A stretch of 64,000 nt of DNA from a virus (IMGVR_UViG_3300001598_000053:1029-65028); one strand, 5' to 3'; counted from the first letter of the stretch, positions 6,026 to 42,798 are shown. A program made the numbers and translations. Notes: generated by a model not told the origin, from the letters alone.

Positions 6026-8218
6026 ATGAAAGTAATTAAACGCGACGGAACATCAGTCAGTTTTGACAGTTCCAAAATCAATTCAGCCATCTCAAAAGCC
6101 AACACTAGAAGCAATGAGATGACACCAGATGATATCGACCATATCGTTGATATCGTAGAAGCAAGATGCAATAGAAACACAGATAATCTATCAGTAGAGA
6201 TTATCCAAGACCTGGTTGAAAGAGCCTTACTCGCAAGTAAGTTCAAAGCAACCGCAAAACAGTATATCCTTTACAGAGACCAAAGAACTAGAATCAGACA
6301 GTCGAAGACGAAGATGATGCAAGAGATTCTAGAAATGGTAGAAGGAAATTCTGACTACTGGAACAATGAGAATTCAAACAAAGATGCAAAGGTAGTAACG
6401 ACACAGAGAGATTATTTAGCTGGAATTACTTCCACAGAGATCGCAGAGATGTCGCTGTTGCCATCGGATGTAGTAAGAGCTCACAAAGAAGGAATCATCC
6501 ACTTCCATGATATGGACTATTTCGCTCAAGCTGCACTTCACAATTGTGATTTGATTAACTTAGAAGATATGCTTCAGAATGGGACAATGATCAACGGAAT
6601 CAAGATCGATCGCCCACATTGGCTTAGTAAAGCAGCAACTATTTCTACTCAGATCATTACAGCCGTAGCTTCTTCACAGTACGGTGGTTGTACAATCACA
6701 TTAACTCACTTAGCGCCTTTTGTAAGAGACAGTTACAATAAGTATCTGGCAAAATACAAAAGAAGAGGATGCACAGAAGAAGATGTAGTAAAATTTGCTA
6801 AAGAGGATTTAGCCACAGAATTAGAGTCAGCTGTACAGACTTTCAATTACCAAATCAACTCAATGTCAACTACTAACGGTCAAGCACCATTCATCACAGT
6901 CGGTATGTACGTTGGCGAATCAGAAGAATATAAAGAAGAAACTGCTTTACTAATCGAGGAATTCTTGAAACAGAGAATCATCGGCATGAAGAATGAGAAA
7001 GGCGTTTACATTACGCCAGCATTCCCTAAGTTAGTTTATGTATTGGAAGAAGATAATATTAAACCTGATTCAAAATATTACTATTTGACAGAACTCGCTG
7101 CAAAATGCACCGCTAAGAGAATGGTTCCAGATTACGTTTCTGAGAAAGTCATGAAACAGTTGAAGTTCAATGCTGACGGAACATCTTCTTGCTATCCTCC
7201 AATGGGATGCAGATCATTCCTGACTCCTGACAGATTCTCAGATTTACTAGGAAACGTATCTAACGCAAAGGATTTCGTCCCTGGCAAACCAAAGTTCTAC
7301 GGAAGATTCAATCAAGGAGTCGTAACGATCAGCTTACCTGATGCTGCGTTATCTTCTGGTGGAGACTTTACTAAATTCTGGAAGATCATGGATGAGAGAT
7401 TAGAGCTTTGCCACAAAGCTTTGAGATGCAGACATGAAAGATTGCTAGGAAAATTCTCAGACATGGCACCAATCCTATGGCAGGACGGCGCGCTAGCAAG
7501 ATTAGATAAGCACGAGAAGATCGATAAGCTTCTGTACGGTGGATATTCTACTATTTCACTAGGATACGGCGGACTATATGAGTGCGTTAAATTTATGACA
7601 GGTCATTCTCATACAGATGGAGCAGAAGGAGAGAAGTTCGGACTTGAAGTAATGCAAAAGCTGAATGATGCTTGTGCAAAATGGAAGTCAGAAGAGAACA
7701 TCGACTACTCTGTCTATGGAACTCCGATGGAATCTACTACTTATAAATTTGCAAAGTGCTTGAAGAAGAGATTTGGAGTAATTGAGGGAATTACAGACAG
7801 AGATTACATCACAAACTCATATCACATTCCAGTATTCGAGGAAATTGACGCATTTTCAAAATTAGCGATCGAGTCTAAATTCCAAAAGCTTTCTCCAGGA
7901 GGAGCAATCAGCTACATCGAGACTTCTGACCTTACTGGAAATATCCCAGCAGTCATGTCAGTGATCCAATTCATCTACGATAATATCATGTATGCTGAGT
8001 TGAATACTAAATCAGACTACTGTCAAGCTTGTGGTTATGACGGAGAGATTCTAATTGACGATCATATGAATTGGTACTGCCCAAATTGCGGTTGTAAAGA
8101 TCATTCTTTACTAAATGTCGCTAGAAGAACTTGTGGTTACATCGGATCAAAGTTCTGGAACTACGGAAGAACCGAAGAGATCAAAGAGAGAGTTATCCAT
8201 CTTGGAGATGAGCAGTAA
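6026..8218 (+). CDS. nrdD: anaerobic ribonucleoside-triphosphate reductase (class III)
   Basis: N-terminal ATP-cone (VIKRDG), C-terminal zinc ribbon CQACG...CPNCG and glycyl-radical motif RRTCGYIG. Confidence 0.9.
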   Translation: MKVIKRDGTSVSFDSSKINSAISKANTRSNEMTPDDIDHIVDIVEARCNRNTDNLSVEIIQDLVERALLASKFKATAKQYILYRDQRTRIRQSKTKMMQEILEMVEGNSDYWNNENSNKDAKVVTTQRDYLAGITSTEIAEMSLLPSDVVRAHKEGIIHFHDMDYFAQAALHNCDLINLEDMLQNGTMINGIKIDRPHWLSKAATISTQIITAVASSQYGGCTITLTHLAPFVRDSYNKYLAKYKRRGCTEEDVVKFAKEDLATELESAVQTFNYQINSMSTTNGQAPFITVGMYVGESEEYKEETALLIEEFLKQRIIGMKNEKGVYITPAFPKLVYVLEEDNIKPDSKYYYLTELAAKCTAKRMVPDYVSEKVMKQLKFNADGTSSCYPPMGCRSFLTPDRFSDLLGNVSNAKDFVPGKPKFYGRFNQGVVTISLPDAALSSGGDFTKFWKIMDERLELCHKALRCRHERLLGKFSDMAPILWQDGALARLDKHEKIDKLLYGGYSTISLGYGGLYECVKFMTGHSHTDGAEGEKFGLEVMQKLNDACAKWKSEENIDYSVYGTPMESTTYKFAKCLKKRFGVIEGITDRDYITNSYHIPVFEEIDAFSKLAIESKFQKLSPGGAISYIETSDLTGNIPAVMSVIQFIYDNIMYAELNTKSDYCQACGYDGEILIDDHMNWYCPNCGCKDHSLLNVARRTCGYIGSKFWNYGRTEEIKERVIHLGDEQ

Positions 8219-24213: not shown

Positions 24214-24654
24214 ATGAAGCAGAAGTTGTTTAGTTCGAAGATAATACGGTTGGCAATAGAAGAAGCGAAGAAAGTCAGAGTTCAGTCAGATTACAAGTTC
24301 TTTCAGTTGGGCGCAGTACTATTCACCAATAAGAAGATTATAGTAAGCGCATGCAACTCCAATAAGACTTCTCCTTCGCAGGCGAAATACAATACTTTCA
24401 GATTCGACTTCGACGGCTCAAACTTCAAGCCGTGCAACCATGCAGAGATCGCCGCAATCAGAAAGTTCACTAGACTGAAGTCAAATATCCGATCTTCAGA
24501 TCTCTGCGTCCTCGTCTACCGCGAACATGCAGACGGAAGTAAAGCACTTGCGCGACCGTGCCCGGCGTGTGAGAAAGCATTGAGAGATTTGGGAATCAAA
24601 TATGTCTACTACACTGGCGAGCATAAGATGGTTTTTGAAGAATACGAAGACTGA
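24214..24654 (+). CDS. CDA-fold zinc deaminase (TadA/ComEB-like cytidine/deoxycytidylate deaminase family)
   Basis: CNHAEIAAI (H-A-E zinc/catalytic motif) and PCPAC (PCxxC) motifs; SD AGGAGA. Confidence 0.6.
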   Translation: MKQKLFSSKIIRLAIEEAKKVRVQSDYKFFQLGAVLFTNKKIIVSACNSNKTSPSQAKYNTFRFDFDGSNFKPCNHAEIAAIRKFTRLKSNIRSSDLCVLVYREHADGSKALARPCPACEKALRDLGIKYVYYTGEHKMVFEEYED

Positions 24655-24744
24655 AAAAATATCTCAATTATTTATCAAAAAGGCATTTACAAATGAACGG
24701 TTATGTGATATAATATATATGTAATAAGGAGAGGTTAAGAGACT

Positions 24745-24960: not shown

Positions 24961-25073
24961 ACGACTTCAATGATTGATGGACGATAATACTTCAAAAAAC
25001 AAAAAGGGCTATTTACAAATGGCCTTTTTTATGTTATAATATACGTGTAATCGAAAGAGAGGTAAAAAAGATT

Positions 25074-25337
25074 ATGGAAAAAAGAAAGTTTATGGTTGTT
25101 GTTAGAGAAGTTGTAGTTGATGGTTTTGGTGGTAATTTTGATATTGTGTTGAAGAAGTTTGATGATAAGAGTGATAGTTATAAGATTGTTGAGAGAAGTG
25201 AAGTGTTTGATAATATTGGTGATTGTTTGAGTGAATTGTATGAAGTTGAATATGGTTGGTATGAGAAGTATGGAATTAGAAATAATGGTGGAGATGAGTT
25301 TAGAATTAAGATGGATGTTAAAGTTTGTAGAATGTAA
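25074..25337 (+). CDS. hypothetical protein encoded by a cytosine-free ORF
   Basis: ORF with SD AGAGAGG; promoter/terminator unit upstream; coding strand 25053-25388 has zero C; product lacks P, H, Q, A, T. Confidence 0.5.
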   Translation: MEKRKFMVVVREVVVDGFGGNFDIVLKKFDDKSDSYKIVERSEVFDNIGDCLSELYEVEYGWYEKYGIRNNGGDEFRIKMDVKVCRM

Positions 25338-25454
25338 ATAATTATAATAATGAAATAGTTTAAAAATATTTATAATTATGTTTAAAAACTATTTACAAAG
25401 TCTGGCATCTATGGTATAATATTATTGTAAATAAAGAAAGGAAAAAATCTAATT

Positions 25455-30186: not shown

Positions 30187-30636
30187 ATGAAGATTTATTT
30201 AGCCAGTTCATTCGCGTATGAGGACAGAGCCTTGACAGAGGCTAGAAAGAAGACAATGGCAGAAGCTCAAGCTATGCTAGAGGGAAAAGGCTTCGATGTC
30301 TACAACCCTTCTACCTTGAAGATTGAGAATGCTTGGGATTATTCTATGTGGGACTGGGGAGACTTGGTTTATCAGGAAGACAAGAAGAACGTTGACAGTT
30401 CAGATTTGGTCGTCATGCTGTCTTACGGAAAAGAGAACAACGCTGGTTCTGCTTGGGAATGTGGATATGCAGCTGGAATAAATAAAGCTGTGATACTAGT
30501 GAGCATGAACCCTTCTCAGCCAGAGAGCTTGATGCTGGTCCATTCCGCGCATGCGTGCTTAGACGGATTAGATGGCTTGAGAGAGTATGACTTCAGCAAT
30601 ATGCCTAAGATGAGAATAGACAGAATTGAGAGTTGA
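30187..30636 (+). CDS. nucleoside 2-deoxyribosyltransferase-family protein
   Basis: N-terminal KIYLASSF and DLVVMLSYG...ECGYAAGINKAVILV resemble the NDT fold (IYFGAGWF; ELGYAL..GK.V); SD AAGGAGA. Confidence 0.5.
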   Translation: MKIYLASSFAYEDRALTEARKKTMAEAQAMLEGKGFDVYNPSTLKIENAWDYSMWDWGDLVYQEDKKNVDSSDLVVMLSYGKENNAGSAWECGYAAGINKAVILVSMNPSQPESLMLVHSAHACLDGLDGLREYDFSNMPKMRIDRIES

Positions 30637-30815: not shown

Positions 30816-31382
30816 ATGATTTATAACAGAGAAGACATCGTTGCATTCTGGCAGACTGACAATACTCCGAACGCTATTTATTCACAGTGGTATAAAGCGC
30901 CATTCACTTATGACGGAATAGAATTCAGCTGCTGTGAGCAATTCATGATGTATTGCAAAGCAAAGGCTTTCGGCGACGATGAAAAAGCAGAGGTTATTCT
31001 GCAAGACACTAACCCGCACTACATGAAGCACCATGGCAGAGAGGTCGTTAATTTCAAACAAGATGTTTGGGATAGCATTAAGTTCAGCATCGTAGCAAAC
31101 GGCAATAAGGCTAAGTTCTCTCAGAATGAAGAACTCAAGAAAGCATTGATTGCGACAGGAGACAAGGTTATAGTAGAGGCAAGCCCATTTGATACTATCT
31201 GGGGAATCGGAATGCTAGAGAATAGTCCAGACATCGTAGATGACTCTAAGTGGCAAGGCCAGAATCTTCTAGGCAAAGCGCTAATGCAAGTAAGAGCTGA
31301 GCTCATCAAAGAAGCTGAGGCAGAAGCAGCTGCTGCGCCTAAGAGAAAGACCAGAGCTAAAAAGACTGCTGTAGCAGAATAA
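30816..31382 (+). CDS. NADAR-domain (YbiA/DUF1768-like) protein with K-rich tail
   Basis: QWYKAPFTYDGIEFSCCEQFMMYCKAKAFGD matches the NADAR family signature; SD AAGGAGAG. Confidence 0.6.
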   Translation: MIYNREDIVAFWQTDNTPNAIYSQWYKAPFTYDGIEFSCCEQFMMYCKAKAFGDDEKAEVILQDTNPHYMKHHGREVVNFKQDVWDSIKFSIVANGNKAKFSQNEELKKALIATGDKVIVEASPFDTIWGIGMLENSPDIVDDSKWQGQNLLGKALMQVRAELIKEAEAEAAAAPKRKTRAKKTAVAE

Positions 31383-31441: not shown

Positions 31442-32041
31442 ATGGGAAGACTGAAATTCTATTATGGGACCATGGGATGTTCTAAGACGGCTAATGCGCT
31501 GATGACTAGATTCCAGTATCAAGACAGAGGGCAGATCGTCTGGCTGATCAAACCTGCTACTGATACTAGAGATGATACGGTAGATGCCAATGGAATCACT
31601 CATTCAATCATCAAGTCCAGAGTCGGCATCAAGGCAGAAGCTGATGTAGTTGCTGAGACAGATAATCTCATAGAGCTGTTCGGCAAGCGCAATATCTGGT
31701 GCAACGTTATAATCTGTGACGAAGCGCAGTTCCTCACTGAGAAGCAGGTTGAGCAGCTGAAGGACATAGCCACAGTCTATGACACAGACGTTATTTGCTA
31801 CGGGCTAAGAACAGACTTCAAGACCAAGCTGTTCCCTGGTTCTCAGAGACTGTTTGAGCTGGCTGATAAGATAGTAGAGCTAAACAATGTCTGCGATTGT
31901 GGAAAGCCAGCTATGGTCAACGCCAGAATCGACAGCTTGGGAAGAGTGCTCGTCAAAGGAAGTCAAGTAGACATTGGCGGAGATGAGAAATACAAGGCTC
32001 TGTGCTGGAGCTGCTATAAGAAAAAGATAAGAACGATGTAG
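31442..32041 (+). CDS. tdk: thymidine kinase (TK1 type)
   Basis: P-loop GTMGCSKT, VIICDEAQFL, C-terminal zinc motif CDCGKPAMVNARI...CWSCY. Confidence 0.85.
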   Translation: MGRLKFYYGTMGCSKTANALMTRFQYQDRGQIVWLIKPATDTRDDTVDANGITHSIIKSRVGIKAEADVVAETDNLIELFGKRNIWCNVIICDEAQFLTEKQVEQLKDIATVYDTDVICYGLRTDFKTKLFPGSQRLFELADKIVELNNVCDCGKPAMVNARIDSLGRVLVKGSQVDIGGDEKYKALCWSCYKKKIRTM

Positions 32042-42026: not shown

Positions 42027-42347
42027 TTGGAGATTTATGAAAATATGAAATTATATGAAGTTATTTTTCAAGACGAATACAATAATTTGTACCAATTAGG
42101 TTATTACAAATCTCTTTCTGACTCTATTAATGATATCAATAGCGAATTAGATTCTTATGGGGTAGCTATTAATGCAGACGATTTAGTGGAGTATCCAAGC
42201 ACATTTAACATGTGTTTTGATGCTTGCATTGGAGATTTAGTCGATGAAAAGATTTTAGACGAACATGAAGAAGTTTCTAGTTTGTATATTAGAGGATTTA
42301 TATTAGATTCTGACAGTTTATTAGAGGTTATTAATAATGGTAATTAA
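42027..42347 (+). CDS. hypothetical protein
   Basis: ORF (start possibly ATG 42045). Confidence 0.45.
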   Translation: MEIYENMKLYEVIFQDEYNNLYQLGYYKSLSDSINDINSELDSYGVAINADDLVEYPSTFNMCFDACIGDLVDEKILDEHEEVSSLYIRGFILDSDSLLEVINNGN

Positions 42348-42798
42348 TTGGGATGAATATTTTTTAGGCGTAGCGAAATTATCTGCGCTTAGGTCAAAGG
42401 ATCCTAATACACAAGTAGGAGCTTGTATCATAAATAATAGAAAGAAAATTGTTGGTGTTGGATATAATGGTTTTCCTACTGGCTGTGCAGACTCAATCTT
42501 TCCGTGGTCAAATCAGGGAGATAGAATCAATACAAAGTATCCGTACGTTGTCCATGCTGAAATGAATGCTATTCTAAATTCAACAACATCTCTAGAAAAT
42601 GGAACTATATATGTTACTTTATTTCCATGTTGCGAGTGTGCAAAAGCAATTATCCAAACAGGGATAAAAGAAGTAGTGTATTGCAGAAATTATAAAGATG
42701 ACGAGAGTAATTTTGCTTCTAAGAAGATGTTTGACGCAGCCGGAGTCAAATATAGAAAAATTAATGAAATCGAAATTGAGCTGCTAAAAAAAGAATAA
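42337..42798 (+). CDS. dCMP deaminase
   Basis: GYNGFPTG, HAEMNAI and PCCECAKAI zinc-binding motifs. Confidence 0.85.
   Translation: MVINWDEYFLGVAKLSALRSKDPNTQVGACIINNRKKIVGVGYNGFPTGCADSIFPWSNQGDRINTKYPYVVHAEMNAILNSTTSLENGTIYVTLFPCCECAKAIIQTGIKEVVYCRNYKDDESNFASKKMFDAAGVKYRKINEIEIELLKKE

Follow-up and report, generated by a model that had tools for sequence, protein, structure and literature searches.

A Phage Gene without Cytosine

We analysed a 64,000-nt stretch of viral DNA (IMGVR_UViG_3300001598_000053:1029-65028; hereafter the window, with coordinates counted from its first letter) and found a protein-coding gene from whose sense strand cytosine (C) is completely excluded. In the 336 nt from 25053 to 25388, the + strand contains 126 A, 122 T, 88 G and 0 C, as a preliminary description made from the sequence alone had claimed. 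This is the longest C-free run in the 64 kb, the runners-up being 78, 63 and 62 nt long, and no run without A, G or T exceeds 58 nt. The 87-codon gene inside the run (25074-25337) has a C fraction of 0.000, compared with 0.10-0.24 across the remaining 97 open reading frames (ORFs) of the window. Our results showed that the C-free state is a product of selection, and not of chance, artefact or mutation bias. The gene belongs to a broader group of early phage genes and cassettes that lack C, and this natural, complete and gene-specific exclusion of a nucleotide is real, general and new.

Codon-level probabilities were computed from the window's own usage (14,076 codons). Because 53.4% of the codons in the other genes are C-free, a series of 86 C-free codons is expected with P = 3.5 × 10−24. 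The encoded protein uses 15 amino acids and contains no Pro, His, Gln, Ala or Thr (P = 2.8 × 10−9), and the probability that every codon is C-free given this protein is 1 × 10−15. All 35 NNY codons end in T (35/35), whereas 52-75% of those in neighbouring genes end in C. The preliminary description had noted the C-free codons and the five missing amino acids, and had concluded that the nucleic acid is constrained, not the protein alone; both statements are borne out, the latter by the synonymous purge (10−15) and by its retention in orthologues of 40-55% identity. A random C-free sequence of the same composition would stay open for 87 codons with P = 1.2 × 10−5 only, which argues that the ORF is a genuine coding sequence.

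The Logan assembly of run SRR1221442 is identical to the window over 11,611 nt, but it and the JGI contig may share one sample; orthologues of other studies were therefore used for independent confirmation. As a control we took other phage loci totalling 541 kb; among their 1,475 ORFs of at least 60 codons, not one had two or fewer of any base.

Orthologues Share the Absence of C

A word-indexed protein search returned the self-match only. A full HMMER search of 1.84 billion representatives found homologues, and a profile search then gave 23 clusters. The family proteins are nearly all 81-83 aa long, with Pro, His, Gln, Ala and Thr almost wholly absent. DNA for 15 loci was taken from ENA, JGI, NCBI and Logan assemblies, mainly of rumen or gut samples. 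C was counted per gene of about 250 nt, the contig background being 11-16% C. The gene has 0 C in L055, L061/L062, L066-L068 and L069, 1 C in L054, L056, L063 and L071, 2 C in L065 and 3 C in L064. Thus C-avoidance, for which the preliminary description had proposed orthologues as the check, is shared by all 11 strict members (0-3 C per gene).

The strict orthologues are 40-55% identical to the window protein, and their codons have diverged wherever more than one C-free codon is available. In the 11 strict members, NNY codons end in T 421 times and in C 3 times, and only 1 of 156 GTN/GGN codons is C-ending. In the genes flanking the orthologues, by contrast, 20-45% of NNY codons end in C, and the five avoided amino acids make up 16-25% of residues. 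The family gene is an extreme low-C outlier in every longer locus. The leftover Cs of the nearly C-free genes stand at codon positions 1-2, where the amino acid demands them, and occur in GCU, GCG, ACA, ACU and UCG contexts. The commonest is the His codon in UUUACAUGA, which makes UACAU/ACA and is found in L060, L064 and L065 (twice there). Several orthologues also have a C just 8 nt past the stop codon.

The purge can be lost. In the relaxed lineage L070 the gene has 14 Cs, 10 of them at third positions, and L057, a distant homologue in a phage of 45% GC (35% identity; tblastn E = 1 × 10−8, local database), has 39. Because L070 and L057 encode the protein with C, the family protein itself needs no C-lessness, and these comparisons of sequences indicate that the C purge is a lineage-specific property of the nucleic acid. 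A protein-only constraint was accordingly rejected, since synonymous C is purged and L057 has normal C. No member of the family was found in the IMG/VR or GTDB genomes, a scan of JGI metagenomes gave 1 locus, and a search for close relatives in cultured phages found none.

An origin without function, be it chance, sequencing or assembly artefact, C-to-T hypermutation or strand-specific mutation bias, has a negligible probability. T is raised in the gene (0.37 vs. about 0.25), as C-to-T conversion predicts. However, G is also up by 0.085, to 30%, so this is not a simple C-to-T swap, and the ORF is intact although C-to-T conversion would turn Gln and CGA codons into stops. The trait is common to ENA, JGI, NCBI and Logan orthologues that differ at half their residues. 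One-off hypermutation was rejected on the intact ORF, the raised G and the conservation across orthologues. Chance was rejected on the codon statistics (10−15 to 10−24) and the empty control of 541 kb and 1,475 ORFs, and artefacts such as bisulfite-like conversion or mis-assembly on the identical Logan assembly and the orthologues from many studies. A deaminase (APOBEC-like) footprint or a transcription bias was rejected because promoter-matched neighbours are normal, G rises together with T and five amino acids are missing. Even in phages with 11-12% C the gene is still an extreme outlier, and its recent transfer from a C-poor phage was rejected on this ground.

Two genes beside the family member were observed to be C-poor as well. 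In L069 the following gene (422-737; MKLENLKRIMELGRK..., at least 87 codons, running off the contig end) is C-free and unrelated, and the sole C separating the two genes belongs to a -35 TTTACA. The following gene represents another C-less family of this phage group. A 67-aa gene (L061:10340-10543, with homologues in L060, L065, L066 and L070) usually adjoins the family member and has 3.4-6% C where the background is 11-12%; the depletion is milder in L070, whose family gene is also relaxed.

Boundaries of the Transcription Unit

The C-free run is bounded by promoter elements, and thus it is the body of a single transcription unit on the + strand. The upstream motif CTATTTACAAA (25009-25019) includes the -35 hexamer TTTACA at 25012-25017, and the promoter scores 11/12 in a sigma-70 scan with a 17-nt spacer. 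The motif has 16 copies in the window against 3.3 expected, and the copy at 25009-25019 overlaps the loop and 3′ arm of a weak hairpin after the upstream gene. An extended -10 element TGtTATAAT follows at 25032-25040 (hexamer at 25035-25040, TG present) and is aligned across the orthologue promoters. GGCC occurs at 25022-25025, inside this promoter. From the consensus, transcription is predicted to start near 25047, which would put C25052 at about +6.

The C-free stretch (25053-25388) consists of A, G and T alone on its sense strand (the non-template one), and its template lacks G. It starts 12 nt past the -10 hexamer and contains a Shine-Dalgarno sequence GAGAGG (25057-25062, 11 nt 5′ of the ATG; the box AAAGAGAGG is present likewise in orthologues), the gene with its stop TAA, and a 3′ trailer of 51 nt (25338-25388). 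An A/U-rich imperfect hairpin spans 25353-25394, with 17-nt arms at 25353-25369 and 25378-25394 that are 82% complementary, and its 3′ arm extends beyond the C-free end into the next promoter motif. No canonical terminator and no U-tract were found at this hairpin, and without a U-tract read-through is likely; orthologous loci (e.g., L061) have a clearer A-tract/hairpin/U-tract at the equivalent place. The run stops one base short of the next motif, the first base of the next gene's promoter (CTATTTACAAA ... TATAAT, 25389-25420) being the C that terminates it. We read 25009-25394 as a self-contained early unit with a host sigma-A-type promoter, a short leader, a Shine-Dalgarno sequence, a gene and a hairpin.

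Promoter-like sites stand in succession at 24686, 25012 and 25392, each of the form TTTACA-17-TATAAT with an upstream TG, scoring 11/12 and lying within CTATTTACAAA. Of these three equally promoted genes, only the middle one is C-free and its two neighbours have normal C, which rules out a mutation bias that depends on transcription strength. The predicted folding of the C-free gene is the weakest of 18 genes tested (−0.099 kcal/nt vs. −0.15 to −0.26), and its RNA is no more structured than shuffled versions (z = −0.9).

In the orthologues, the C-free run starts in the promoter spacer or a few nt from the predicted start, and stops at the next promoter or terminator. In at least five lineages (L055, L061, L063, L066 and L069), and in the leaderless cassettes described below, it starts 5′ of the -10 element, so the whole transcript is C-free.

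C-Free Cassettes in Unrelated Phages

We scanned IMG/VR with patterns in which a promoter or Shine-Dalgarno word, as anchor, had to precede 170 positions other than C, a design that sees part of the phenomenon only; the first anchored pattern gave no match. Long multi-gene cassettes were found. The longest is 2.3 kb with one C and at least 5 genes, in a contig of 18% C (L083:5528-7832). Others are 1,493 nt with no C and three genes (L084:1156-2648) and 1.09 kb with one C and four genes on the reverse strand (L085:969-2055). L073:5965-7387 has three units with 5, 1 and 0 C, the other Cs being only in -35 hexamers, up to a CCCCCC...GGGGGG terminator. Five genes with 0-4 C were found in L075/L076 (L076:7473-8791) and two with 0 C in L074:1-409. 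Single C-free stretches of 853, 537 and 420 nt lie in L079:855-1707, L086:3271-3807 and L087:12420-12839 (a contig of 49% GC), and three runs of 118-506 nt in L081:7632-9115.

A second protein family (L076b) keeps a restricted amino-acid set in homologues that are 64-93% identical; one gene pair of this family (L077:9648-10277) has 4 and 0 Cs against a background of 20%. The C-less trait is thus conserved in at least two protein families and recurs in unrelated phages over up to 2.3 kb. The cassette proteins are mutually unrelated, mostly very acidic (isoelectric point, pI, about 4.1) orphans, and the cassette boundaries are sharp. The identical pattern gave one borderline case only in 596 Gb of bacterial and archaeal genomes. 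This is a 63-aa membrane-protein gene with 0 C (L078:4975-5225) in a metagenome-assembled genome (MAG) contig binned as Bacilli; it was set aside as unconvincing because the contig has 23% GC and is C-poor throughout. L080 and L088 (giant-virus MAGs) were set aside for low complexity or very low C.

Of 12 independent cassettes, six are no more than 2 kb away from the end of their contig, where 1.26 are expected (P = 4 × 10−4); the window gene, L061 and L077 lie 25-53 kb from contig ends, which may not be physical ends. In L073 the C-poor module lies before the terminase gene and the late genes of normal C, and in L073 and L076 the C content climbs along the early module. Intergenic spacers of multi-gene cassettes are C-free too, and their -35 boxes are TTGATA/TTGATT inside the cassette and TTGACT just outside, while cassettes with one promoter per gene keep the C of the -35 box. 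Some C-free genes are apparently leaderless (L076:7795-8480, L077:9620-10010, L074:150-200), with TTGACA-17-TATAAT, 6 nt and then ATG, and no Shine-Dalgarno sequence. These features, namely strong sigma-A promoters, leaderless cassettes, contig-end location and C rising along the module, point to an early, first-expressed character of the genes.

Hairpin or repeat motifs such as AATAAGAATGATTCTTATT and TTTAGTAGTTTAAAGTGGTAAAGT were observed on both sides of some cassettes (L079:830-860 and 1700-1740; L081:9100-9160; L083:5499-5530 and 7833-7950). They could be terminators, operators or injection-stop-like signals.

Possible Causes of the C Purge

The purge is context-free and reaches the last synonymous C, so the cost is likely to be paid per cytidine and to be multiplicative. 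If every C is removed, in any context and at any codon position, then each cytidine in the transcript (that is, each template G) would carry a price. It may be explained that the host RNA polymerase makes the unit without incorporating C, which would render its synthesis independent of the cytidine triphosphate (CTP) pool. This is the explanation that we favour, although we do so tentatively and give it somewhat less than an even chance. A C-free unit would keep its transcription speed when CTP is scarce, would be proof against chain terminators made from CTP (e.g., viperin-type ddhCTP), and would have its protein made first and reliably, ahead of the C-containing phage messages. CTP-independent transcription fits best because a step at the level of the substrate is naturally context-free, and because the spacers and -35 boxes in read-through cassettes also lose C, as expected if a polymerase reading through has to avoid every C. 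C is the only base dispensable to a translatable bacterial message, since AUG, the Shine-Dalgarno sequence and the stops need A, U and G. C-lessness may therefore be simply the one way open to a message of dispensing with a nucleotide. What we infer from these patterns is the level at which C would be costly (nucleotide supply as against RNA or DNA) and the source of a CTP problem.

Transcription without CTP had been put forward in the preliminary description, together with a cause, namely that two deaminases of the phage itself pull down the C pools. The idea is still the best candidate, but its proposed cause finds no support. The two genes (24214-24654 and 42337-42798) are real and have the cytidine deaminase (CDA) fold. 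However, they resemble ordinary enzymes of the dCMP-deaminase type, and no deaminase was called within 10-20 kb of the orthologues in L061, L063 and L064.

Several points weigh against CTP-independent transcription. We know of no defence system or phage function that depletes CTP. The C-free units carry host-type promoters, and neighbours with the same promoter contain C and still need CTP. With the consensus-predicted start, a single C would fall at about +4 to +6 in the window gene and in L064, and a polymerase stalled at the C 8 nt past the stop would hide the stop codon from the ribosome. Since the remaining phage genes need CTP, the benefit would have to be one of timing or yield and not all-or-none. 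The known dCTP-deaminase defence leaves CTP, CDP and CMP untouched (bioRxiv 10.1101/2021.04.26.441389). Viperins do turn CTP into the chain terminator ddhCTP, but their products were tested mainly on T7, which has its own RNA polymerase, and phages that use the host polymerase are thought to be less exposed (bioRxiv 10.1101/2023.09.13.557418).

The cost may instead lie in the RNA. A C-dependent endoribonuclease or RNA-modifying effector acting at the start of infection would spare a C-less message, a possibility that we rank below CTP-independent transcription, at perhaps one chance in four. Such an effector would be a host toxin, an abortive-infection effector or the phage's own host shut-off enzyme, with the C-less protein possibly its antidote. 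The context-free purge of each C and the transcript boundaries fit this explanation equally well. It also agrees with the places where Cs are tolerated, at all of which a cut would be harmless to translation: 5′ of the Shine-Dalgarno sequence in 3-4 lineages, just after the stop codon, and base-paired within terminator stems. However, a cut between cistrons should do no harm, yet spacers and -35 boxes are purged, and an RNase for single-stranded C would presumably also clip the CCA ends of tRNAs. To our knowledge, no bacterial RNase recognises a lone C. Known toxins require motifs of 3-7 nt (PMC5408214), and the tolerated His codon makes UACAU/ACA in L060, L064 and L065, which counters MazF/EndoA. 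An engineered precedent does exist, as ACA-less messages are translated in MazF-expressing cells (PMC5408214, PMC9102682). Immunity to RNases through missing ACA or UACAU sites, as first proposed, is thus disfavoured because UUUACAUGA is tolerated and motif avoidance needs no total purge, while a C-directed attack on RNA is still a live candidate. A structure-free or Rho-proof message is far less probable. Without G-C pairs, the ribosome-binding site would not be hidden and no pause or terminator hairpins would form, and Rho, which binds YC-rich RNA, could not load. The gene is indeed the least folded of the 18 tested. Rho resistance calls for low C and high G over windows of about 80 nt, which this gene (C 0%, G 30%) trivially has, but not for zero C. 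But such effects would saturate before C = 0, one more C hardly altering the folding, whereas the cost seen here appears to act per C. Moreover, G is raised and not lowered, even if G-U pairs can still form. Phage messages at 11-17% C and 20-30% G would already be poor Rho substrates, and because the flanking genes are already C-poor and G-rich, Rho resistance is unlikely to explain a purge to zero.

Protection of the DNA is an unlikely explanation, with about a tenth of the weight in our judgement. It supposes that no C is left on the non-template strand for a single-stranded DNA (ssDNA) cytosine deaminase with a uracil glycosylase or, in a variant, that the template lacks any G open to DarT1-type ADP-ribosylation or to a modification that would slow the polymerase. 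As this would require, one strand alone is constrained, over the entire transcribed stretch including spacers, and a NADAR gene (30816-31382) hints that G-directed attack on DNA matters to the window phage. Immunity to ssDNA deaminases, also raised in the preliminary description, is still live, but it does not account for the undepleted neighbours, whose promoters are identical (all 11/12 with TG). Three promoters have Cs in the discriminator, a region exposed as single strands in the open complex. The non-template strand is G-rich (30%) and so more exposed to G-directed ssDNA enzymes, and no 7-deazaguanine or other G-modification genes were found among about 40 window proteins scanned. In addition, deamination at third positions is synonymous and would be spared by selection for coding fidelity, so only damage or mutation pressure would purge it. 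It is very improbable that restriction sites of every kind are avoided so as to keep the first-entering genes intact until anti-restriction proteins appear. A C-less strand holds no palindrome containing G/C and few Type I/III sites, half of the independent cassettes are near a contig end, and most cassette proteins are very acidic like DNA-mimic anti-restriction proteins. However, restriction concerns particular words only, in contrast to a context-free purge, and A/T-only palindromes (AATT, TTAA, TTTAAA, AATATT, ATTAAT) are undepleted in 12.65 kb of cassettes (observed/expected 0.99 for 4-mers and 1.06 for 6-mers). Both contig ends are 25 kb or more away from the window gene, which has ordinary flanking genes and GGCC in its promoter. 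Site avoidance needs no ban on five amino acids, and the boundaries track promoters and terminators, not simply gene ends.

Comparison with Known Systems

Sawadogo and Roeder in 1985 reportedly engineered G-less and C-less cassettes as templates that are transcribed with one nucleoside triphosphate (NTP) omitted. The window unit is alike in that a stretch 3′ of a promoter lacks one non-template nucleotide and would be transcribable without the matching NTP. However, it is natural and protein-coding, conserved by selection across diverged orthologues, and has a ribosome-binding site and a trailer. In the first-step-transfer region of T5 and the leading end of T7 with ocr, the early-entering DNA is free of restriction sites. 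There too the first-acting genes are shielded by what the sequence omits, with small acidic proteins, and many cassettes lie near contig ends; but the C avoidance is strand-specific, total and transcript-bounded, and spares A/T-only palindromes. Eukaryotic viruses show APOBEC3 footprints at TC/CC and ZAP-driven depletion of CpG, where host pressure on a base or dinucleotide likewise reshapes viral coding sequence including synonymous sites. Those effects are partial, context-dependent and genome-wide, whereas C-lessness is complete, context-free and confined to particular early genes.

In single-protein production with MazF, as in the natural avoidance of toxin-RNase motifs, composition protects a message so that only that message is translated (PMC5408214, PMC9102682). 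Here an entire nucleotide is dropped and not a motif of 3-5 nt, and UACAU, the MazF site of Firmicutes (PMC5408214), is tolerated in three orthologue genes. Viperin with ddhCTP is a known antiviral mechanism that acts specifically via CTP with a per-C cost in RNA synthesis, the kind of cost proposed here (bioRxiv 10.1101/2023.09.13.557418), but the C-less units use host-type promoters, and the host polymerase may not be sensitive to ddhCTP. According to one paper, natural DNA and RNA contain essentially no long stretches that lack a nucleotide (PMC6526412), and our full-text literature search found no published description of natural C-free genes.

We consider it about as probable as its opposite that C-less early genes are the footprint of an unrecognised phage-host conflict that acts through cytidine. 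Such a conflict would work by depleting or poisoning CTP, through an RNA effector specific for C, or through a weapon of either sort that the phage itself uses for shut-off. If so, phages would write their first-line genes in a three-letter alphabet as an answer to a cytidine-directed agent, and the absence of C from a sense strand would be a sequence-only signature of immediate-early counter-defence or take-over genes in uncultured phages, pointing also to the host factor neutralised. C-lessness would be the first natural case of selection excluding a whole nucleotide from coding genes. Its conservation in at least two protein families and its recurrence in unrelated phages indicate that the earliest phage messages are under strong and widespread pressure, of a sort not named in current models of phage defence. 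The finding raises a testable question: what in the infected cell makes the cytidine of a message costly? Natural C-less expression units could also serve as CTP-independent or nuclease-proof expression tools.

The 87-aa Protein

The protein of the window gene is a mildly acidic (pI 5.0) orphan. An AlphaFold2 model built from 17 family sequences has a predicted local distance difference test (pLDDT) score of 87 and a predicted template-modelling (pTM) score of 0.76, with a beta3-alpha-beta fold. Comparison of the model with BFVD structures gave nothing reaching E = 0.001, and sequence searches of Pfam, PHROGs, NCBIfam and the PDB gave no match. No similarity of sequence or fold was found to known anti-defence or annotated families (Acr, Ocr/ArdA, Ugi, antitoxins). 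Judging from its position, promoter, size and orphan status, the protein is most likely an early counter-defence or host take-over factor.

One ENA contig encodes a 152-aa protein (P0025) that joins a MarR-type helix-turn-helix domain with the C-terminal half of a family member; it may be a chimeric assembly or a real fusion. Family codon 82 is TGA in L054:309-311 and L055:1365-1367, and TGG in L056:591-593. In L069:210-212 there is an in-frame TAG at codon 17, where the database protein was called with Gln, and TGA is hardly ever a stop in L061, L063 or L064. This pattern may reflect stop-codon recoding in some phages, or merely truncated variants.

Genomic Context and Neighbouring Genes

The window is the non-structural part of a large phage whose host is anaerobic and Firmicute-like. 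Its genes include an SNF2 helicase, a Dam-type methylase, NrdD/NrdG, a ligase, PhoH, a thymidine kinase, the NADAR gene and six tRNAs. The nearest cultured relatives of the helicase are from Bacillus, Clostridium and Streptococcus phages (34-38% identity). A link of C-lessness to a neighbouring 153-aa gene was rejected, as its 52 IMG/VR relatives have no long C-free run nearby.

NADAR enzymes undo the ADP-ribosylation of guanine by DarT1-type toxins, and the NADAR gene may thus be a counter-defence gene. It adjoins a nucleoside deoxyribosyltransferase (30187-30636) and the thymidine kinase (31442-32041). The deaminase at 42337-42798 also scores 58.6 bits, above the Pfam threshold, against the family of MafB19-like toxin deaminases.

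Among the orthologues, no RNA families or tRNAs were found adjoining the gene. A conserved, comparatively GC-rich non-coding element (...GGTATCC.GATGA..CCGATTCCATGTTCCC...) lies just 5′ of the family gene in L061:9713-10000, L064:9471-10000 and L069:1-110; it gave no tRNA or Rfam match. Finally, the window itself has two codon-usage domains, with 50-75% of NNY codons C-ending in 1-35000 and 15-40% in 35000-64000.

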